A stretch of DNA of 64,000 nucleotides, from NCBI GenBank assembly GCA_965202805.1, contig OZ241869.1, positions 3,232,001 to 3,296,000 on the forward strand, written 5' to 3'. This DNA comes from Longimicrobiales bacterium. Its GTDB lineage: Bacteria > Gemmatimonadota > Gemmatimonadetes > Longimicrobiales > Gaopeijiaceae. Both the position numbers and the translations under genes were made by a program. The notes below the pieces were generated by a model. That model had not been told where the DNA came from and made no database searches. It worked only from the letters and a program-made list of their open reading frames with translations. The number at the start of each line of letters is the position of its first letter. The first letter of the stretch is position 1. Of the stretch, positions 2,506-13,765 are shown in pieces.

Positions 2506-5500
2506 ATGCGAGTGCGGCCCGACTTCACGACCGCAGAGGCGGAGGTGCTGGCGAGGGACCACTATGGCATCCAGGGTCGCGCCAGGGAACTCCCGGGCGA
2601 GCGGGACCGAAACTTCCAGCTCCGCGTGACAGGGGACGGGCGAGGTGCTGGGCGCGAGCGCAGCGACGGAGCGCAGGACGCCGGAGCGGAGCGCGCCGGC
2701 GAGGCCTTCGTTCTCAAGATCGGCCACCCCGCGGAACCCGACGGATCGCTCGCGATGCAGAACGCGATCCTGGCTCGGCTCGCCCCCGTTCGACCGGATC
2801 CGGACGGCGGTCGGCGCGCGCTTTTTCCACGTGTCGTACCAGACCTCGGAAGTTCCTCCCTCGCGGTGGTCGAAAAGGAGGGCGTCCGCTACCCGCTGCG
2901 CCTGGTCACCTGGCTGCCCGGGGTGCCGGTTGCCCGGGTGCGCCCCCAGCGGCCGGAGCTGCTGCGCTCCTGGGGGCGTGTGCTGGCCCACCTGGACGCC
3001 GGGCTTGCCGATTTCGACCATCCCGCGGCGGAGCGCGGCTTCCACTGGGACCTGCGAACCGCGTCCTCCATCTTCGAGGAGCGGGTGGGGAGCGTGAAGG
3101 GGAAGGACCGGCGGGCGCTGCTTCGGCACCGGATGGCGGACTGCGCGGAGAGGCTGGCGCCCCTGATCGCGGGCTTGCGCACCCAGGTGGTGCACGGGGA
3201 CGCCAACGACTACAACGTGCTGGCCAACCGGGTCGAGGACACGCCGCCGGGGGGCCGCTACGGCGACCGGCGCGTCACCGGCATCATCGACTTCGGCGAC
3301 GCCATGCGCACCTGGCTGGCTTCAGAGCCGGCAGTCGCGGGCGCCTATGCGATGCTCTCCAAGCGCGATCCCGCGGGGGCCCTGGCGCAACTGGTGAGCG
3401 GCTTCCACGAGGTGTATCCGCTTCTGGAGGAGGAAATCGCCGCCGTCTTCCCGCTCACGGGGATGCGCCTTTGCCTGAGCGCGACCATGGCTGCCTGGCA
3501 GCGGGCCCGGGAGCCGGACAACGAGTATCTGAGCATCAGCGAGACGCATGTCTGGGAGCTGCTGGAGCGTCTTGAGCGGGGAGAGGAGTTCCACCCGGAC
3601 TTCGTGCACTATCGATTGCGCGAAGCCTGCGGCATGGAGCCGAACCCGCGCGCGGCGGCCCTGCGCGCCTGGCTGAGCCGCCAACGCGACGAGGGCCGTT
3701 TCGCCCCGGTGCTGTCGCGAGAGCTGGCCGAGGGTCCGCGCACCGTCTTCGATCTGAGCGTCGGGAGCCCGTGGCTCGGAACCACGGGCGATCTGGACGC
3801 GCGCGGCTGGACCGACCTGCTCTTCGGTCACATGCGGGCGAACGCTGCCGCGGTCGGGGTGGGCCGGTACGACGAGGCGCGCCGCTGGTACGACTCCGAC
3901 GCGTTCGCCACCCAGGGCGAGGACGGCCTCGAGCGGCGAACCGTCCACGTGGGCATCGACCTGTTCGCGGAACCCGGCACGCCCGTGCATGCGCCCTTCG
4001 CCGCGACCGTGCACAGCTTCCGCGACAACGGCGCGCGGCTCGACTACGGGCCGACCATCGTGCTGCGCCACGAGGCGGGAGGACCGGGCGGGGACGGCAC
4101 GCGTGAGGCGCCAGGTGACGGCGGCGCGCACGCGGCCGGGGAGGATGCCGGCTCCGACGACGCCAACGAGTGGTACACCCTTTACGGGCACCTTTCGCGT
4201 GACTCGCTGGCGGGGCTCCGCCCGGGACAGCAGATCGCCGCCGGAGCGGAGATCGGCAGGATCGGGCCGTATCCGGAGAACGGGGACTGGGCTCCGCATC
4301 TTCATTTCCAGCTGATGACGGACCTGCTGGGCCGCGAGGGCGACTTCCCGGGCGTGGCGCCGCCCAGCCAGCGCGAGGTGTGGCTCAGCCTCTCACCGGA
4401 TCCGAACCTGGTGCTCGGGATCCCGGATCTGGCTCCAGCGGGGAGGAATGCGGCCTCGGAGCTCCTGGGTGCGCGCCGGAGGCTCCTCGGTCCGTCGCTC
4501 TCAATCTCCTACCGGCGTCCGCTGGAGATGGTGCGCGGCCGCGGCGCCTGGCTGTACGACGACGGGGGCCAGCCCTACCTGGACTGCGTCAACAACGTCG
4601 CGCAGGTGGGCCACGCACACCCGCGCGTGGTGCGGGCCGGCCTCGAACAGATGACGGTGCTGAACACCAACACCCGCTACCTGCACGACAGCCTCACCCG
4701 GTACGCCCGGCGTCTCGCGGCCACGCTGCCGGACCCGCTCGGCGTCTGCTTCTTCGTGTGTACCGGGAGCGAGGCCAACGAGCTGGCGCTGCGCATGGCG
4801 CGCACCCACACCGGGCGCGAGGGCATGGTCGTGCTGGAAGGCGGGTATCACGGCAACACCAGCTCGCTGGTGCAGCTCAGCTCGTACAAGTTCGATGGTC
4901 CCGGGGGCACGGGCCCCCCGCCGTGGGTGGCGTGCGTCCCCATGCCGGACGGCTACCGCGGCCGCTACCGGTCCTCCGATCCCGACTGCGGCGCGCGCTA
5001 TGCCCGGGAGGTCGGCCGCGCCGTCGATGCGCTCGGGGGACGGCCCGCCGGCTTCCTCTTCGAGTCGATCCTGAGCTGCGGGGGGCAGATCCCGCTTCCC
5101 GAAGGCTTCCTTGCGGACGCGTTCGAGCGCGTGCATGCGGCCGGCGGGGTGTGCATCGCCGACGAGGTGCAGGTGGGGTTCGGGCGTGCCGGCTCTTCCT
5201 TCTGGGCCTTCGAGGACCACGGGGTGGTGCCGGACATCGTCACCATGGGCAAGCCCATCGGCAACGGTCATCCCCTCGCGGCCGTGGTCACCACCCCGGA
5301 GATCGCCGACTCCTTCAACAACGGGATGGAGTACTTCAACACCTTCGGCGGCAACCCGGTGTCCTGCCGCATCGGCCTGGCGGTGCTGGACGTGATCGAA
5401 GAGGAGGGGCTGCAGGACCATGCCCGCCGCGTCGGTGAGCGGCTGCTCGCGGGATTGAAGCGCCTCGTGGAGCGCCACGCAATCGTCGGGGATGCACGCG

Positions 5501-5739
5501 GGACCGGCCTCTTTCAGGGGATCGAGCTGGTGACGGACCGCGCCTCGCTCGACCCCGCGCCGCGCCACGCGACCTGCCTGGTGGAGCGCATGCGCGACCG
5601 CGGCATCCTGCTCAGCACGGACGGCCCCCTCCACAACGTGGTGAAGATCAAGCCGCCGCTGGTCTTCGACGAAGACGACGCCGACCGGCTGGTGAGCAAC
5701 CTAGACGAGGTGTTGGCGGAGGACGCGCTGCGCCTGTAG
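2506..5739 (+). CDS. Three-domain fusion: APH/hydroxylysine-kinase-like phosphotransferase + M23-like domain + class III PLP aminotransferase/phospho-lyase
   Basis: HGDANDYN and IIDFGD kinase motifs; HVGID and PHLHFQ M23 motifs; [22 protein letters not shown] and TMGKPIGNG class III PLP motifs. Confidence 0.88.
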
Positions 5740-6879: not shown

Positions 6880-7272
6880 ATGAACGTGTTCCCCCTCGAG
6901 ACCCTGGACCGCGAGGCCTCCGACCCGGTCAACTTCACCGGCCCCGGGAGCCTGCGCCGCATCGAAGGCGCCCTCCCCGCCGATCCCCGGGTCAACGTCT
7001 ACCGCGTGCATTTCGAGGCCCGCTCGCGCACCAACTGGCACACGCACAGCGGCCATCAGATGCTCTTCGTCGTGGAGGGCCGCTGCCGCTACCAGAAGGA
7101 AGGGGAAGCCGTCGGGGAAGCCGGACCGGGAGACCTCATCGTGGTGGAGCCGGGCGAGAACCACTGGCACGGCGCCGCTCCCGGCGGAGCGATGACGCAC
7201 ATCGCGCTCAACGTGAACGCGGTGACCAGCTGGGGGGACCCGGTGAGCGAGGACGAATACGATGCAGGGTAG
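6880..7272 (+). CDS. Cupin domain protein
   Basis: RTNWHTHSGHQMLFVVEG and PGENHWHGA cupin motifs; AAGGA upstream of ATG 6880. Confidence 0.85.
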   Translation: MNVFPLETLDREASDPVNFTGPGSLRRIEGALPADPRVNVYRVHFEARSRTNWHTHSGHQMLFVVEGRCRYQKEGEAVGEAGPGDLIVVEPGENHWHGAAPGGAMTHIALNVNAVTSWGDPVSEDEYDAG

Positions 7273-7282
7273 GGAGGGTAGG

Positions 7283-7570
7283 ATGGTCCGGATCCAGAGG
7301 GCCTTCCGGCGTCTGAGGAGAGGCCTGCGCGAGGCGCGCGAGATCTACGAGGGCATCTACTTTGCCCCCTACCGCTCCCAGATCTATCGAGCATACCGTG
7401 AGGAGCGGGACACCTTCCTGCTGCTGGGGTTCGCGGATCTGCTGGGAGCCCCGAACCCGGTCGCCTTCTATGCCCTCGAGATCTATCCCGACGTGATCGA
7501 GGAATTCCATCAGTGGCACGTGCGCATCGGCATGCCCAGCTCTCCGGATGGTGGCTTCAGATGCTGCTGA
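7283..7570 (+). CDS. Small protein ending in Cys-Cys-stop (cory-CC-star-like), associated with CstA/ArsA
   Basis: GGAGGG RBS; ...FADLLGAPNPVAFYALEIYP...FHQWHVRIGMPSSPDGGFRCC*; adjacent to an ArsA-family ATPase and near cstA. Confidence 0.8.
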   Translation: MVRIQRAFRRLRRGLREAREIYEGIYFAPYRSQIYRAYREERDTFLLLGFADLLGAPNPVAFYALEIYPDVIEEFHQWHVRIGMPSSPDGGFRCC

Positions 7571-7721
7571 GACCGGGCGCGGGGATACCGCCGGGATCGC
7601 GCACGGCGTCCAACGCCAGCCGTCTCGGCGTTCGGGTCGCGGTGCGCGTCCGGCCCGGGCAGGACCGGGCTTCCGGCCGTGACGGAGACAGGCCCGTGGC
7701 GCGGGCGTTCGATCCGAGTCC

Positions 7722-8705
7722 GTGACCAGGCCGCGCCGCATTCTCGACCGCGAGGTCGTCTTCTTCGGGGGCAAGGGCGGGGTCGGCAAGACCACCCTGG
7801 CCGCCACCATGGCGCTCGAGGCCGCGCGCGAGGGGCACCGCACGCTCCTGGTCTCCACCGATCCCGCGCACTCGACCTCGGACGTGCTCGAAACCCGACT
7901 CGGAGGCGAGGCCCGGGAGGTGCGCCCGCGGCTGTGGGCGCTCGAGATCGATCCCGCGGAGGAAGCCGACCGCTACATCGACGACGTGAAGGCACGCATC
8001 GCCGACAGCACCCCGCCGCGTCTGATGGCGGAGGTCGAGCGCCAGATCGACATCGCACGCGTGACGCCCGGCGCCGAGGAATCCGCGCTGTTCGACCGCT
8101 TCACCCGGATTGCCGAGGAGGCCGGGCACGTGTACGACCGCCTGATCTTCGACACCGCTCCGCTGGGCCACACGCTCCGCCTGCTCGCACTCCCCGAGCT
8201 GATGGGCGCCTGGATCAGCGGCCTCATCTCGCGGCGCAGGAAGGTCAACGTGCTCGGGCGCATGTGGCGGAACGTGGCGGGGGCGGCCGCGGGCGCCGAG
8301 GATGCCGGCGAAGATCCGGTGCTCGGCGCACTCACGGAACGCCAGACCCGCTTCCGCCATGCGCGTGCCCTGATCACGGACCCGCACCGCACCGGCTTCG
8401 TCTTCGTCGTGACCCCGGAGCATCTGCCCGTCGCCGAGACCGAGCGTTCGGTGAAGATGCTCGACAAGTACGGGATCCCGGTGGCCGCCATCTTTCTCAA
8501 TCAGGTGGTCCCCGAGGACGCGGACGGGGGGCTGCTGGCCTCGAGGCGCGCACGCCAGCGGGAGTACGCGCAACGGGTGCGGAAGAGTTTCTCCGCATAT
8601 CCGGTTCACGCCGTACCTCTGTTGGACGGCCGACTGCACGGGCTGGAGGCATTGCAGCGCCTCGCGCGGGCGTTGCCGATGTCGGAGCGGGGGGGTGTGA
8701 GTTAA
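7722..8705 (+). CDS. ArsA/Get3-family single-domain ATPase
   Basis: GGKGGVGKTT deviant Walker A, STDPAHS switch I, DTAPLGH switch II, PG.EE motif; the protein contains no Cys. Confidence 0.92.
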   Translation: MTRPRRILDREVVFFGGKGGVGKTTLAATMALEAAREGHRTLLVSTDPAHSTSDVLETRLGGEAREVRPRLWALEIDPAEEADRYIDDVKARIADSTPPRLMAEVERQIDIARVTPGAEESALFDRFTRIAEEAGHVYDRLIFDTAPLGHTLRLLALPELMGAWISGLISRRRKVNVLGRMWRNVAGAAAGAEDAGEDPVLGALTERQTRFRHARALITDPHRTGFVFVVTPEHLPVAETERSVKMLDKYGIPVAAIFLNQVVPEDADGGLLASRRARQREYAQRVRKSFSAYPVHAVPLLDGRLHGLEALQRLARALPMSERGGVS

Positions 8706-8734
8706 CTCGGAGGAGGCGCTGGGAGAGGTGCTCC

Positions 8735-8820
8735 TTGCGGTACAAGAGGGCATCATATGATACTTGACGGGAGGAAATGACCGAGAATCGGAGCATTCAT
8801 GAAACGCATGTCTCATATGG
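8735..8820 (+). promoter_or_regulatory. Putative promoter/operator region of the toxin-antitoxin-ATPase cassette
   Basis: AT-richer intergenic segment with palindromes ATCATATGAT (8752-8761) and TTCATGAA (8796-8803) and a related TCATATGG (8813-8820); TATGAT and TTGACG hexamers are present but spacing is non-canonical. Confidence 0.35.
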
Positions 8821-8829
8821 CGGGCACCC

Positions 8830-9213
8830 ATGAGCCGTCCAACGAGCTCGATCCAGGATGACGAGCATGGGAACTACCCCGAGATACGGCGTCAGATGAT
8901 CGCGCTGATCCGGAACCGGAGGCGGAAGGCCAACTTTACCCGCCGGCGACCGACGGACATCCGGCCCAGGGAATTCATGAACCCGGAGACAGGTTACCGG
9001 TTGTCGCGCCAGGGGATGTGGGCGGAAGTCGTACGGCTGCTCGAAACAGGCGTACCGCTCAGGAGGGTGGCGCTTCAGCAGCCAGCCGGCGAGGTGGCTT
9101 GGGATTTTGTCGCCGAGCTTTGGCCCGGCCAGCCCTTCCTGTACGTGAAACTCCAGATTCTCGGCTCGACGATCCGCCTGAGAAGCTTCCATCCCAGCGA
9201 GGTGAACCGATGA
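8830..9213 (+). CDS. Putative MqsR/RelE-like toxin
   Basis: 127 aa, basic, ends in LYVKLQI...LRSFH like MqsR-type RNases; ATGA overlap with the downstream MqsA-like gene. Confidence 0.6.
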   Translation: MSRPTSSIQDDEHGNYPEIRRQMIALIRNRRRKANFTRRRPTDIRPREFMNPETGYRLSRQGMWAEVVRLLETGVPLRRVALQQPAGEVAWDFVAELWPGQPFLYVKLQILGSTIRLRSFHPSEVNR

Positions 9214-9827
9214 CCCAAGTTGCCTCTCCTCCGACCGTGCTCCGTGCCCATTCCGGGCCTCAGGCCCGCTGTGACGTGTGCGGAGCGATCAGCGTACAAA
9301 CGGAGTTGATGCGGGATCCCTTCATCTACGGTAGTGGTGCGAACGCCGTTGAGCTTACCGCCGATGTTTGGGTGCACACCTGCTCGGCGTGCGGGGATTC
9401 CTATACGGATGATGAGGCGGACGTCGCGTACGACGAGGCAGTTTGCCGACACTTGGGAGTCCTCACTCCCGCCGAGATTCGCGACATGCGCGAAGGATAT
9501 GGCCTCACCCGGGCCGAGTTCGCGCAACTGACCGGGTTCGGGAAGGCCACCGTGGGCCGTTGGGAACGCGGAGAGGTGACCCAGAATCGCTCGGCCGACC
9601 GCTATCTCAGGTTGCTCCAGGAGCCGGGGGTCATGCGACGGCTGCGGGCACTCGGCGAGGTAACGGATTCAGCCGGACTCCAGACGCCGGCCCGACCTCG
9701 GGTCTTTATATTCGACTGCATTCAGGTTTCGAGCCAGAGGGTTATCCGCGAGAATGCCCGGGGGTTGAACCCGGGGATATGGAAGGCGGACCCCGGCTTG
9801 GGCTTCGAGGCCGGCGCCGAAGCCTGA
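9210..9827 (+). CDS. MqsA-family antitoxin (Zn ribbon + XRE HTH) with a long C-terminal extension
   Basis: CDVC...CSAC zinc ribbon; LTPAEIRDMREGYGLTRAEFAQLTGFGKATVGRWERG HTH; about 65-70 extra C-terminal residues. Confidence 0.85.
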   Translation: MTQVASPPTVLRAHSGPQARCDVCGAISVQTELMRDPFIYGSGANAVELTADVWVHTCSACGDSYTDDEADVAYDEAVCRHLGVLTPAEIRDMREGYGLTRAEFAQLTGFGKATVGRWERGEVTQNRSADRYLRLLQEPGVMRRLRALGEVTDSAGLQTPARPRVFIFDCIQVSSQRVIRENARGLNPGIWKADPGLGFEAGAEA

Positions 9828-11821
9828 TGTACGTCACTACCTTCTACTCCTACAAGGGCGGCGTGGGTCGGACGCTCGCATTGGTCAACGTGGCCTACGA
9901 GCTCGCGGCATCCGGCCAGCGGGTCTTGGTGGTCGACTTCGACCTCGAGGCTCCGGCTATCCACTCCGGCACCTGGCGAGCGTCCGGGGAGGGACCGCGG
10001 CACGAAGAAGGCCGAGCGCACTCCAGGCATCCGGGCATCGTGGAGTACGTCGGGCGCTTCATCGACACGCTGCGCGGTCCGCGAGCAGAGGATCACATCG
10101 TCGACGCGACCCCGACGGGCTGTGCGGGCAAGATCGCGCTGATGCCGTCGGGTACGTTGAATGACGACTACGGAAGGCGACTGGGCGCGATCGACTGGAA
10201 TGAGTTGTACCTGAAGTACGACGGGTACGTGATGTTCGAGGATCTCCGCGAACAATGGCGGCTGCTCGGCTACGATTACGTGCTCCTGGACTCGCGCACC
10301 GGCGTCACTGATGTGGGCGGAATCTGCACGCGTCATCTTCCCGATGCGGTCGTCTTGATGTTCCGTCCGGACGACCAGAGCCTCCACGGTACGGCGGGCG
10401 TTGCCGGCGCCATTCGGAACGAACGTCCCGCTCCGGGGCGTGGCCGTGTGAGGCTTCACTTCGTGATGGCGGCGATTCCCGATGCCGACGACGAGGATGG
10501 GATCCTCGAAGATCTCCAAAGCAGGTTTCAGCGGCGATTGAACGTGCCGTCCGGCGAGCTCATCGAAATCAGAAACTATCAGAGCATGGACTTGCTCCGG
10601 CAGCCCATCTACACCGACAAGCGGCCGCGAACCCAATTGGCGAGATCATACCAGGGACTGACGAAACGCATTCGATCCGAGAATATTGATGATCGCGAGG
10701 GAGTCCTCGAGTGTATGCGGCGCATATACAGGGATATGGAGGGCACTCGGATCATGTTCGGATCCGACGCGGTTGCGGGATACTATTTTGAGGACGACCC
10801 GTTTGATTCTCATGCGGAAATGCGTGACCGGCTCGCCAAAATCGAGGAGCGGTACCCCGAGGACCCAGAGGTGCTTTTTGCATTGGCTTGCACCTACGGC
10901 AAGGCGCGCCAGAAGGGCCATGTCAAGAGGCTGTTGGATCGACGCTCCACCGCCACGGCGCTATCGCCCGACCACCTGATCAGGCTGGCAAGGGTGTTGG
11001 GTCCGCACACCTATGATGGAGCGGTGCGAGCCCTTGAGCTGTTCTTTCGAGAACAACATGCAGGCGTTCCCGGCGATGACGCGTTCCCGCTGGTGGAATC
11101 CGGCGTTCTCCTCCTGGAGAAGTTGGACAAGGACCGTGCCGGGTTCGTTGGCGGCAGTCCGATCGTGTCGCAGCTCTCGGCGTCTCAACAAGCGACGGTG
11201 GCGAGCCACTTGAAGCTGTCCCGGGGCGAACGAGCAATCGCGGTCGAACTCCTTGCGAACGCGCTTCAAGGCGCCGAAGGTTCCGGGCACGAAAAGAGCA
11301 ATTGGGAACGGGAACTGGCCTTCGCGCGAATCGCGGTGGGGAAGTTCGGGGAAGCTGCGGACTACTACCGATCCATCTCGACGGAGGACCCACCCTCCTT
11401 TCTTCCACAGGCGGCGGCCTTCTGCCTTGGCATGGCGACGTGGGGGGACACCGGAACGGCAAACCCGGATGACTTCCTGCGCGTGCTGACAGCTTATCGT
11501 GAGACGGACTTGGCAGGGTGGCAGGAAGGCCCCAGTGGTGAACTCGAGCGCAACATACTTGGTTGCATCGGCAATTGGCAGGCGATGTCGTTGGTCGAAT
11601 GGCTTGGAGGACGGTCCGATCACGCGCGCAGGCACCTGCGCGAAGCCGAAACGGAAGCCCAACACCTCCTGCAACGCCCTCTCGTTCCGTTTAGCTGCTG
11701 GTCCTACACGTGTGTTTCCGCGGAGACCTTTCTCGAGCACTGCCACGAGATCGGCCGTCTCTTCGATGGCTGCGACGTCAAGCCCGCGTTCATGAGGGAC
11801 GCGGAAAAAGGCGTAGCGTAG
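9827..11821 (+). CDS. KGGVGR-motif ParA/MinD-like ATPase with a helical (TPR-like) C-terminal region
   Basis: MYVTTFYSYKGGVGRT, VVDFDLEAP and LLDSRTG motifs; TPR-like helices (LAFARIAVGKFGEAADYYR); TGATG overlap with the antitoxin. Confidence 0.82.
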   Translation: MYVTTFYSYKGGVGRTLALVNVAYELAASGQRVLVVDFDLEAPAIHSGTWRASGEGPRHEEGRAHSRHPGIVEYVGRFIDTLRGPRAEDHIVDATPTGCAGKIALMPSGTLNDDYGRRLGAIDWNELYLKYDGYVMFEDLREQWRLLGYDYVLLDSRTGVTDVGGICTRHLPDAVVLMFRPDDQSLHGTAGVAGAIRNERPAPGRGRVRLHFVMAAIPDADDEDGILEDLQSRFQRRLNVPSGELIEIRNYQSMDLLRQPIYTDKRPRTQLARSYQGLTKRIRSENIDDREGVLECMRRIYRDMEGTRIMFGSDAVAGYYFEDDPFDSHAEMRDRLAKIEERYPEDPEVLFALACTYGKARQKGHVKRLLDRRSTATALSPDHLIRLARVLGPHTYDGAVRALELFFREQHAGVPGDDAFPLVESGVLLLEKLDKDRAGFVGGSPIVSQLSASQQATVASHLKLSRGERAIAVELLANALQGAEGSGHEKSNWERELAFARIAVGKFGEAADYYRSISTEDPPSFLPQAAAFCLGMATWGDTGTANPDDFLRVLTAYRETDLAGWQEGPSGELERNILGCIGNWQAMSLVEWLGGRSDHARRHLREAETEAQHLLQRPLVPFSCWSYTCVSAETFLEHCHEIGRLFDGCDVKPAFMRDAEKGVA

Positions 11822-11986
11822 GGCCCCGCGGATCCGAGCGCCGGGGCGCACCAGGCATGTGACCGCGTCCCGGCCCGGCAGCGCCGCGCTCCCCCGGTTG
11901 CCCGTCGCGGAGGCGGCAACGTAACATGGCCCTGTTCCGCGCTTCGGCAGGCTGACGAAGTGCGCATCGCTCCCGTCAGCACAAGG

Positions 11987-13765
11987 ATGGCATCCGTGAG
12001 TTCAATCGTACTCCTATTGATCGGATTGGCCGCGTTCGCCACCGGATACCGGGTCTATTCCCGGTACGTCGCGCAGAGGATCTACCGGCTCGACCCGGAC
12101 TTCCGAACACCGGCGCACGAGTTCGAGGACGGGGTGGACTTTCTGCCCACCAACCGCAACGTCCTCTTCGGCCACCACTTCACCTCGGTGGCGGGGGCGG
12201 CGCCCATCGTTGGGCCGGCGATCGCGGTCATCTGGGGGTGGTTGCCCGCGTTCCTGTGGGTGGTGCTGGGGACGATCTTCGCGGGCGCGGTGCACGACTT
12301 CGGCACTCTCTGGATCTCGACCCGGCACAAGGCCAACTCCATCGGCACGCTCGCCGGCAAGATCGTGGGGGACCGCGGCCGGGTGCTCTTCATGCTCGTG
12401 ATCTTCTTCCTGCTGCTGCTGGTGAACGCGGTCTTCGCGGTCGTCATCTCCAACCTGTTCATCGGCAACCCGGGCGCGGTGCTCCCGGTCTGGGGCAGCC
12501 TGGTGGTCGCGATCACGGTGGGCTTCCTGATCTACCGCTCGGGCGCCGGGCTGCTGTGGCCGTCTCTGGGCGCGCTGGCGGTGCTCTACTTCCTGATCTG
12601 GGTGGGCCAGTCCGTTCCGCTCCAGCTTCCCGACTTCTTCGGCTTCGACCCGACGCCCGCTCAGATCGCGGCGGCCGGAGGCGACCAGGCGGCGGCAGCG
12701 GCGGCGGCTACCACCGACGGCGTGCGCGCCGGGTGGGTCATCGTCCTCTTCGTGTACGCCTTCTTCGCCAGTGTGCTGCCAGTCTGGCTCCTGCTCCAGC
12801 CGCGCGACTACGTCAACAGCCACCAGCTCTTCGTGGCGCTCGGCATCATCGGGCTCGGGATCATCTTCACCAACGCCCCAGTGGTGGCGCCCGCCGTCAA
12901 TACGAATCTGCCACCCGATACGCCCAACTGGTTCCCGCTCCTCTTTGTTACCATCGCCTGCGGCGCGATCAGCGGTTTCCACGGACTGGTGTCGTCCGGG
13001 ACGTCGTCCAAACAGCTCGACAAGGAGACGGACGCTCGCTACGTGGGCTACGGGGGTGCGGTCGGCGAGGGCTCACTGGCTCTCACCTCGATTCTGGCGA
13101 CCACCGCCGGTTTCGCGGTCGTGGTGGGGGTGGACGGCTGGCACGACCACTACGGATCGTTTGCTTCGGCGTCGGCGGGCGCAACCCAGGCGTTCGTCCA
13201 GGGCGTGGGAGTCCTGGCGCAGGGGATCGGCATCCCCCAGGGCCTCGCGGTCACCTTCGCCGCCGTGGTGGTCATCAGCTTTGCCGCCACCACCATGGAC
13301 ACCGGGGTGCGTCTGCAGCGCTACATCATCTCCGAACTGGGGGCCGAGTACAAGATCAAGCTGGCCCAGAACCGCTGGATCGCGACCACGCTCGCCGTAT
13401 CCAGTTGCGCCCTGCTGGCGCTGGGGGTGGACCGGGGCGCCGGGGGCATGCGTCTCTGGCCGCTGTTCGGCACCACGAACCAGCTCACCGGGGCCATGAG
13501 CCTGCTGGTGATCAGCCTCTTCCTCTACAGCCTCAAGCGGAGGATCTGGGTGACGGTGATGCCGCTGGCCTTCCTGCTGGTGATGACGACCTGGGCCATG
13601 GTGATCAACATGATCGGCTACTGGACCAGCGAGACCTGGCTCCTGTTCGGGGTTGGAGGCGCGATCTTCGTGCTGGTGCTCTGGCTGGTGTTCGAGGCGC
13701 TGGCGGCGATCCGGCTGGCGATGTCCGCGAGCGGGCCCGGGGCTCCGGCGCGTCACGGCCCATGA
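11987..13765 (+). CDS. cstA: Carbon starvation protein A family transporter
   Basis: TPAHEFEDGVDF, FGHHFTSVAGAAPIVGP, PVWLLLQPRDY, TIACGAISGFH, TTMDTGVRLQRY and WPLFGTTNQL motifs. Confidence 0.95.
   Translation: MASVSSIVLLLIGLAAFATGYRVYSRYVAQRIYRLDPDFRTPAHEFEDGVDFLPTNRNVLFGHHFTSVAGAAPIVGPAIAVIWGWLPAFLWVVLGTIFAGAVHDFGTLWISTRHKANSIGTLAGKIVGDRGRVLFMLVIFFLLLLVNAVFAVVISNLFIGNPGAVLPVWGSLVVAITVGFLIYRSGAGLLWPSLGALAVLYFLIWVGQSVPLQLPDFFGFDPTPAQIAAAGGDQAAAAAAATTDGVRAGWVIVLFVYAFFASVLPVWLLLQPRDYVNSHQLFVALGIIGLGIIFTNAPVVAPAVNTNLPPDTPNWFPLLFVTIACGAISGFHGLVSSGTSSKQLDKETDARYVGYGGAVGEGSLALTSILATTAGFAVVVGVDGWHDHYGSFASASAGATQAFVQGVGVLAQGIGIPQGLAVTFAAVVVISFAATTMDTGVRLQRYIISELGAEYKIKLAQNRWIATTLAVSSCALLALGVDRGAGGMRLWPLFGTTNQLTGAMSLLVISLFLYSLKRRIWVTVMPLAFLLVMTTWAMVINMIGYWTSETWLLFGVGGAIFVLVLWLVFEALAAIRLAMSASGPGAPARHGP

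Follow-up and report, generated by a model that had tools for sequence, protein, structure and literature searches.

Three overlapping genes at positions 8830 to 11821 of a 64,000-nucleotide stretch of DNA from a Longimicrobiales bacterium (contig OZ241869.1, positions 3,232,001 to 3,296,000 of the forward strand; the whole stretch is referred to here as the window) raise the question why a toxin-antitoxin (TA) pair resembling MqsR-MqsA is followed by a large ATPase of the chromosome-segregation type, and what this third protein might do for the pair. The three genes are one conserved, mobile unit, and the cassette is a member of the recently described TA-ParA class, in which, according to the accessible text of the preprint, type II TA pairs are joined by a third ParA gene that is mostly fused to a TPR region (Li, Burroughs and Aravind, 10.64898/2026.10.19.760177), and not a new kind of system. 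With regard to its function a guard model is favoured, to which as a whole a probability of about 0.5 is given: the MqsA-type antitoxin would hold an MqsR-fold ribonuclease (RNase), and the ParA-TPR protein would shield the antitoxin tail until a trigger arrives. The features of the cassette, in positions of the window, are the following:

8752..8761, unstranded: palindrome ATCATATGAT, conserved across loci, predicted operator for the antitoxin helix-turn-helix (HTH)
8813..8820, unstranded: the palindrome again in imperfect form, TCATATGG, seen in the sequence and perfect in the genus relative G006
8830..9213, + strand: predicted RNase toxin of MqsR fold, 127 amino acids, unnamed family (structural model; invariant Y105, K107, F120, H121)
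9210..9827, + strand: MqsA-family antitoxin, 205 amino acids, with CxxC...CxxC zinc domain, HTH and C-terminal tail (TIGR03830, PF15731)
9630..9824, + strand: C-terminal tail of the antitoxin (residues 141-205), predicted from the family motif to bind ParA-TPR and to carry a degron, divergent in the window
9827..10696, + strand: domain of ParA/MinD fold (residues 1-290) containing the P-loop KGGVGRT, the sensor DxD and the Walker B motif DhhhhD (NF047398, structure)
10697..11821, + strand: TPR-like region of helical repeats (residues 291-664), predicted to be the sensor (model; TPR_14 matches in the family)

A conserved and mobile three-gene unit

The three open reading frames (ORFs) 8830-9213 (ORF1, 127 amino acids), 9210-9827 (ORF2, 205 amino acids) and 9827-11821 (ORF3, 664 amino acids) are all open on the + strand and are joined by an ATGA overlap at 9210-9213 and a TGATG overlap at 9825-9829, exactly as described in the initial annotation of this DNA. 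Its observation that the cassette is richer in A/T-ending codons than its neighbours also holds, the difference being real and modest: the third-position G+C is 0.78, 0.73 and 0.74 for ORF1, ORF2 and ORF3, compared with 0.88 for the neighbouring arsA, 0.91 for cstA, 0.89-0.93 for three other genes and 0.81 for a short cory-CC-star gene.

The linkage of the genes was assessed from both ends, the toxin-anchored search being the unbiased direction. For this search a degenerate DNA pattern was run over species genomes, which samples the main clade of the toxin family; of the 171 loci collected up to that point it recovered no more than 12, and it matched neither the toxin of the window nor the clade to which this toxin belongs. 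At least 120 matches were obtained; among the matches listed the toxin profile supported 119, and in 117 the gene next to the toxin gene was MqsA. Excluding 43 loci (1 without a toxin-profile match, 39 with flanks of 300 nt only and 3 with fewer than 1200 nt downstream) left 77, and among these listed loci, which have 1200 nt or more downstream, MqsA came next in 76/77 and ParA-TPR third in 71/77. Random downstream genes, the outcome that would have spoken against the proposal of the initial annotation, are excluded. A profile search of 401 genomes of the phylum added 6 further loci with all three genes in each, one of the toxin matches being partial. Starting from the ATPase, the best 80 metagenome loci carried an MqsA-type gene directly upstream in 54 cases, 29 of which had the toxin family described here. 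Different toxin-sized ORFs were present at many of the other loci, 12 of 13 without an MqsR/RelE-type Pfam match and one matching DUF4258, and some ATPase-anchored loci carried TIR- or Fxs-type genes, as judged by eye. As a side observation, toxin-sized ORFs without any Pfam match lie upstream of the antitoxin at L085, L091, L112, L118, L119, L123, L124, L126, L128, L130, L132, L134 and L154; by eye, a conserved His is found in the closing strand of many of the ORFs without a Pfam match in the toxin position.

Among the matches listed, carriers belong to the Pseudomonadota, Acidobacteriota, Planctomycetota, Spirochaetota, Myxococcota, Binatota, Latescibacterota and Bacteroidota, and in a quick tree phyla are mixed within supported branches. 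The cassette was found on five plasmid records and in the cultured genera Rhizobium, Massilia, Bradyrhizobium, Janthinobacterium and Pyxidicoccus; cassettes of the consensus type are carried by Rhizobium phaseoli (plasmid NZ_CP013566.1) and Massilia forsythiae (NZ_CP051687.1). Many carriers (L172-L251) bear names which we take to be those of sponge-symbiont lineages; together with the phyla sharing branches these names hint at exchange within one habitat, with sampling bias uncontrolled. At three loci (L086, L103, L104) the cassette is closely followed by a HerA-type (DUF87) gene, which could be a fourth partner or part of a shared defence island.

Mobility is also apparent at the locus itself, the inserted segment and flanking host genes of which, the latter outside the cassette, are:

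8690..11908, unstranded: inserted segment of ~3.2 kb between the last arsA codons and the arsA-cstA spacer
7722..8705, + strand: ArsA/GET3-family ATPase (TIGR00345, 292 bits), its 3' end being the insertion site
11987..13765, + strand: CstA transporter (PF02554, 480 bits)

Identity to the genus relatives ends at ~8689-8691 and restarts at ~11897-11908, the last codons of arsA having been replaced by the insert. The site is empty in 16/18 genus relatives, where arsA runs straight into the cstA spacer, and filled at the same place in G006; G015 (67% complete) gave no match at the insertion junction. No integrase or transposase ORF was found inside the inserted segment, and none of the contigs matched to the cassette region skips the cassette. 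The genome contains a second full cassette in unrelated surroundings (C1:2694481-2697326), its proteins being 46-52% identical to those of the window, and all three genes are found in this paralogue as well as in G006 and G013. Close homologues of the third protein carry the source labels Candidatus Palauibacter or Gemmatimonadota.

Several observations concern the surroundings only. The host operon of the window (7262-13765) has the gene order cory-CC-star protein, ArsA-family ATPase, CstA, which is common to the genus; cstA usually comes first in the gene order. Behind the paralogous cassette lie a lone HTH gene (L001:9357-9634) and, close by, what by eye resembles a HipA plus HTH pair (10994-12612); the gene after the G013 copy is of the DUF488 type (L024:509-1387). 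Elsewhere, a 1077-amino acid ORF in the window (2506-5739) appears by eye to fuse kinase-like, peptidase-like and aminotransferase parts, and the genome contains 17 tRNA genes arrayed in 2.9 kb (G000:C1:2827836-2830698).

The three proteins and the upstream palindrome

ORF1 gave no Pfam or PADLOC match and a negligible NCBIfam match, and its family comprises 180 clusters at E<=1e-3. None of 115 aligned family members matched the Pfam MqsR model (PF15723) at E<=0.05, on which a control MqsR from locus L071 scored 69.8 bits. Among 48,161 chains, the structural model of ORF1 (predicted local distance difference test, pLDDT, 92) had its best match in E. coli MqsR (3hi2_D; Z 9.6, root-mean-square deviation 2.7, 90 residues aligned), the runner-up reaching Z 5.2, and this match bears out the fold of the MqsR-like, RelE-fold toxin that had been proposed initially. 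With Foldseek nothing was found at E<=0.001, MqsR being ranked 13 with a probability of 0.94; a profile of the toxin alignment, run against solved structures, gave nothing meaningful, and in an Atlas search a cluster containing MqsR (17% of its members) came fourth with a score of 0.92. Y105 is present in 115/115 family members, K107, F120 and H121 are likewise invariant and R118 is conserved to 97%. MqsR requires Tyr81 and Lys56, according to the accessible part of the source (PMC9636575), and Tyr81 aligns with the invariant Y105 in a weak profile alignment made via the control MqsR (hhalign probability 30%). ORF1 is therefore likened to MqsR by its predicted fold yet lies outside the Pfam family, and it would presumably act as an RNase.

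ORF2 exceeds the cut-offs of TIGR03830 (76.3 bits against 61.8) and PF15731 (41.9 bits against 30), the four Cys residues of the antitoxin are invariant in 67 rows, and the protein extends ~60 residues past the HTH, which confirms its earlier description as an extended MqsA. The KGGVGR ATPase of ParA/MinD type that had been recognised in ORF3 is confirmed as well: ORF3 scores 139.4 bits on NF047398 (cut-off 90), and the model of its residues 1-290 matches the structures of MinD (4v02_A, Z 22.6) and ParA (8ray_A, Z 21.2). In its KGGVGRT P-loop an Arg replaces the second Lys, and between 65 and 67 of the 67 rows in the family alignment retain the residues of P-loop, sensor and Walker B. The ParA protein of the window has S8, K10 and R15, of which S8 and R15 occur in 67/67 family members each; in the PG motif of the family (P43 67/67, G44 60/67) the window has PA, and the Asn of a degenerate [NT]KxD motif is Ala. 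With the nucleotide-binding motifs present, ORF3 is a predicted ATPase.

The TPR-like region held up at the level of the family, where TPR_14 is found in 22/67 members, and it is weak in the window protein itself (TPR_14, E 9e-4, below the cut-off). The model of residues 290-664 is mostly helical, and TPR clusters appeared among the Atlas matches of ORF3 (0.91-0.92), the fold searches having barely probed this region since the ParA domain filled the lists. Column conservation is 0.36-0.40 in the TPR-like region as opposed to 0.65 in the ParA domain. The distances of antitoxin and ParA correlate over 67 loci with r 0.87, as is expected of any co-inherited pair. In the ParA tree, which is a quick tree, the members linked to TIR and Fxs genes form a separate branch (99 in the SH-like approximate likelihood ratio test, SH-aLRT).

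The palindromes noted upstream in the initial annotation are both present. In the spacer of the window, taken by itself, one palindrome with an arm of at least 5 was found against a shuffle mean of 0.69 (p 0.42), which is not above chance, and it is their strong conservation across homologous loci that sets them apart. The pattern TCA-N2-TGA occurs upstream of 91/100 toxin genes and in 2/97 control stretches; it was the best of 448 patterns tried, and the margin far exceeds that selection. The sequence TCATATGA lies upstream of 80/100 toxin genes as opposed to 0/97 controls, and of its six occurrences in the 4.0-Mb genome two are directly before the two cassettes. At loci with other toxins the palindrome was present in only 3/16 cases. 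A promoter scan found no sigma-70-like site, and a search for RNA runs matching the region gave none. MqsA-type antitoxins autoregulate, and by analogy the palindrome is a candidate operator of the antitoxin.

The antitoxin tail and the predicted role of ParA-TPR

The aligned antitoxins end in F-R-x-L, followed after about ten residues by Q-x-x-F-x-L-R-x-A-A. A profile of this tail was built from 29 metagenome loci and scored on the antitoxins of other loci with a threshold of 8 bits. The motif reached at least 8 bits in 64/78 ParA-linked antitoxins, in 0/11 ParA-less antitoxins (0/5 toxin-linked, 0/6 MqsA relatives) and in 0/390 shuffles; it had no match in 9 TIR-type and other upstream proteins. 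A 235-amino acid protein that is not an MqsA and has no Pfam match (L113:157-861) adjoins a ParA-TPR gene from upstream and carries the motif with 11.5 bits, which suggests that the tail element may move between antitoxin types. Ala-Ala ends were found in 34/101 antitoxins, compared with 0/101 toxins, 1/83 ParA proteins and 14/1213 ORFs of the same genome. For antitoxins of toxin-antitoxin-chaperone (TAC) systems, the accessible text of a preprint reports that Ala-Ala and Val-Ala ends are ClpXP degrons on a chaperone-addiction element, and that the pair becomes independent of the chaperone once this element is removed (10.1101/2024.02.24.581848). The Ala-Ala/Val-Ala ends of the antitoxins strengthen the analogy with TAC.

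Toxin loci without ParA are informative with regard to the tail. None of the six has an intact tail: two are interrupted by an insertion sequence (IS; frames read by eye), which in one case lies between toxin and antitoxin (tail unscored) and in the other inside the tail, and four have tails that stop early. In addition, two genus relatives carry orphan antitoxins at a common site (L065:5720-6591 in G006 and L066:5760-6482 in G010); the ParA gene is gone in both, the toxin has disappeared wholly or for the most part, and the G006 orphan keeps a toxin fragment and two palindromes. Separately, a split MqsA-like fragment in G128 (L072:3907-5786) was seen upstream of two genes, presumably a DarT/DarG-like pair by eye.

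Taken together with the linkage, these results argue for the guard model, in which we infer every step beyond the linkage of the genes. By homology to MqsRA, the zinc domain of the antitoxin very probably inhibits the toxin, and the HTH very probably represses the operon at the palindrome. It is also highly likely that the third protein controls the toxin-antitoxin pair. How it does so is less certain: on balance, ParA-TPR would bind the C-terminal tail and hide its degron, thus being a tail-bound stabiliser in the place of the SecB of TAC systems, and any antitoxin set free would be removed by ClpXP. A trigger, likely a phage product, would be sensed by the variable TPR region and would change the nucleotide or oligomer state of ParA, upon which the tail would be released, ClpXP would degrade the freed antitoxin and the RNase would be liberated. 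That the TPR region senses an invader and that the outcome is abortive infection is considered probable; the defence role rests on the architecture and on the argument of the preprint as far as its text is accessible (10.64898/2026.10.19.760177), and a check of the neighbouring genes was only mildly favourable. More tentatively, the tail may be a portable 'ParA-addiction' element, combining a short aromatic docking motif with a ClpXP degron, which would make the pair dependent on the ParA-TPR guard. In that case the role of SecB would have been taken independently by an NTPase of the ParA family, through which a toxin release triggered by phage would have gained a nucleotide switch and a sensor of TPR type.

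A number of observations weigh against the guard model. The tail motif fails in 22/22 antitoxins from TA-ParA loci that do not belong to this toxin set and is therefore not universal. The tail of the window itself scores -0.5 bits and those of three close relatives 1.4-5.6, and the antitoxin of the window ends in Glu-Ala rather than Ala-Ala. Its ParA protein lies on a long branch of the quick tree and is without G44 (60/67), N216 (61/67) and N185 (62/67), which most family members keep; given the long branch, a joint divergence of the tail of this clade and its partner is conceivable. There are only a few ParA-less loci, and these may be no more than cassettes in decay. In a complex prediction of ParA-TPR of the window with antitoxin residues 140-205 a score of 0.56 was obtained (runs 0.02, 0.56 and 0.64), the best of three controls giving 0.00; no interface was reported, contact agreement between runs was at least 0% and the partner pLDDT at least 32. 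The mark used was reached by 116/157 solved complexes and 2/215 mismatches, and at scores up to 0.60 it was reached by only 18/157 solved complexes yet by both mismatches; this prediction lends the guard model weak support and is given little weight. The catalytic Lys56 of MqsR has no conserved counterpart, its column being variable in the same weak alignment (hhalign probability 30%). The loci are related, so that the counts overstate independence, and the toxin pattern matched one viral contig. In a scan of flanking genes that took the largest ORF per locus (89 of 282 candidate ORFs), only 11/89 were defence-like by Pfam name, with no matched control, and 23/89 had no Pfam match; the window copy sits among housekeeping genes. 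Finally, no experimental study of the TA-ParA class was found in the literature searched, the coverage of which left out most subscription papers.

Rather unlikely is an arrangement in which ParA-TPR is an activator: the pair would be neutral alone, and upon invasion a ParA switch would strip the antitoxin from the toxin or deliver it to a protease. This comes close to the preprint, the accessible text of which proposes a sensor-switch that reorganises the toxin-antitoxin interaction and releases the toxin, with a predicted immune role (10.64898/2026.10.19.760177). The near-complete conservation of P-loop, sensor and Walker B, which a passive holdase would not need, speaks for it, and an adaptor role is equally compatible with the data on tail and degron. 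If ParA-TPR were such an activator, however, its loss would be costless and tails should often survive, yet the motif is found in none of the 5 scorable ParA-less toxin loci, a small sample; a loss of the tail together with ParA is predicted by a stabiliser and not required by an activator. The degron-like end of the tail would separate guard and activator mechanisms in one toxicity assay.

The neighbourhood data bear on a different possibility, namely that the cassette is a stress-responsive or selfish addiction module with a dedicated regulator and has no anti-phage role. Most neighbours are metabolic or housekeeping genes, PADLOC matched no system, copies occur on plasmids and as solitary insertions, and the patchy spread and decay are compatible with selfish behaviour. 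The fusion of a variable TPR region to a conserved ParA domain and the kinship with TIR-ParA systems, on the other hand, are compatible with a sensor-switch design, and some copies adjoin restriction, SIR2, TIR, HEPN or HerA genes; such a module is considered quite unlikely. It is improbable, too, that the family functions as proposed while the window copy is degenerate or has switched its docking mode, as its divergent tail without an Ala-Ala end, the loss of N216, G44 and N185 and the long branch might indicate: all three frames are intact, Y105, K107, R118, H121 and the palindrome are retained, the contigs of one sequencing run (X2), which may be the source sample, are identical to the stretch, and there are over 100 full-length homologues (41-90% identity), many with the same substitutions. 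The guard model is retained as the preferred reading. TA-ParA systems are predicted immune modules, of which this cassette family offers a compact and testable form, with a single toxin family that goes together with ParA-TPR in nearly every case and a specific candidate operator. If the guard model is true, a chromosome-segregation-type ATPase has been reused as the safety catch of a toxin.

Comparison with known systems

PADLOC returned no system match for the cassette. Its component B of PDC-M28 matched residues 4-231 of ORF3 (E 7.9e-24); this is similarity at the level of the domain, as no other component was matched and toxin and antitoxin match no PDC-M28 model, and the term 'PDC-M28' was found in no paper searched. 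NF047398 is likewise a domain family rather than a system and also occurs in TIR-ParA and FxsT-type proteins. Two further candidates were rejected on the accessible text of the sources: PD-lambda-2 has a third gene related to a P4 antitoxin (PMC9519451), and ptuXYZ has a PtuA-like ATPase and a different layout (PMC11980606).

With E. coli MqsR-MqsA, as described in the accessible part of the source (3HI2; PMC9636575), the cassette shares the predicted toxin fold and an antitoxin with zinc domain and HTH, and Tyr81 corresponds to Y105 in the weak profile alignment. It differs in that its toxin has invariant Lys107 and His121 and a near-invariant Arg118 and, by the same alignment, is without a conserved Lys56, and additionally by the ~60-residue antitoxin tail and the near-constant third gene. 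The TAC systems (MqsRAC, HigBAC, CmdTAC; 10.1101/2024.02.24.581848), to which the initial annotation had compared the cassette, have in common with it, according to the accessible text, the C-terminal antitoxin extension with conserved aromatics, often an Ala-Ala/Val-Ala end, and a third gene. The third protein, in contrast, is SecB-like there and a 664-amino acid ParA-TPR protein here, and the dependence on the tail is demonstrated there (10.1101/2024.02.24.581848) and inferred here.

The closest relatives are the TA-ParA systems with a BECR-fold toxin, so that the suggestion of a combination not previously described has to be given up: the accessible text of the preprint names MqsR-MqsA among the BECR pairs, and both the class and the general model are already contained in it (10.64898/2026.10.19.760177). 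The work is computational by its methods outline, and it contrasts the TA-ParA design with SecB-based TAC systems. As marks of the clade it gives an Arg for the second Lys in Walker A, an N-terminal Ser and a PG motif after the sensor DxD (10.64898/2026.10.19.760177). As far as this text allows a comparison, the cassette shares with the class the TA pair followed by ParA in conserved order, the toxin of predicted BECR fold, the HTH antitoxin, the ConB2 Walker A (S8, K10, R15) and the predicted C-terminal TPR-type sensor, whereas the window has PA where the clade has PG. The main text of the preprint is without 'operator' or 'palindrom', and the keyword passages compared mention no antitoxin tail; toxin family and tail were compared via this main text, and the figures and supplements may already show them. 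Shown here by computation are the operon structure, the insertion, the folds as predicted models, the linkage, the conserved upstream palindrome, a tail motif that occurs only in antitoxins linked to ParA, and an overrepresentation of Ala-Ala at their ends. What is added to the TA-ParA class is an unnamed toxin family of MqsR fold, a candidate operator and an antitoxin tail with a degron-like end.

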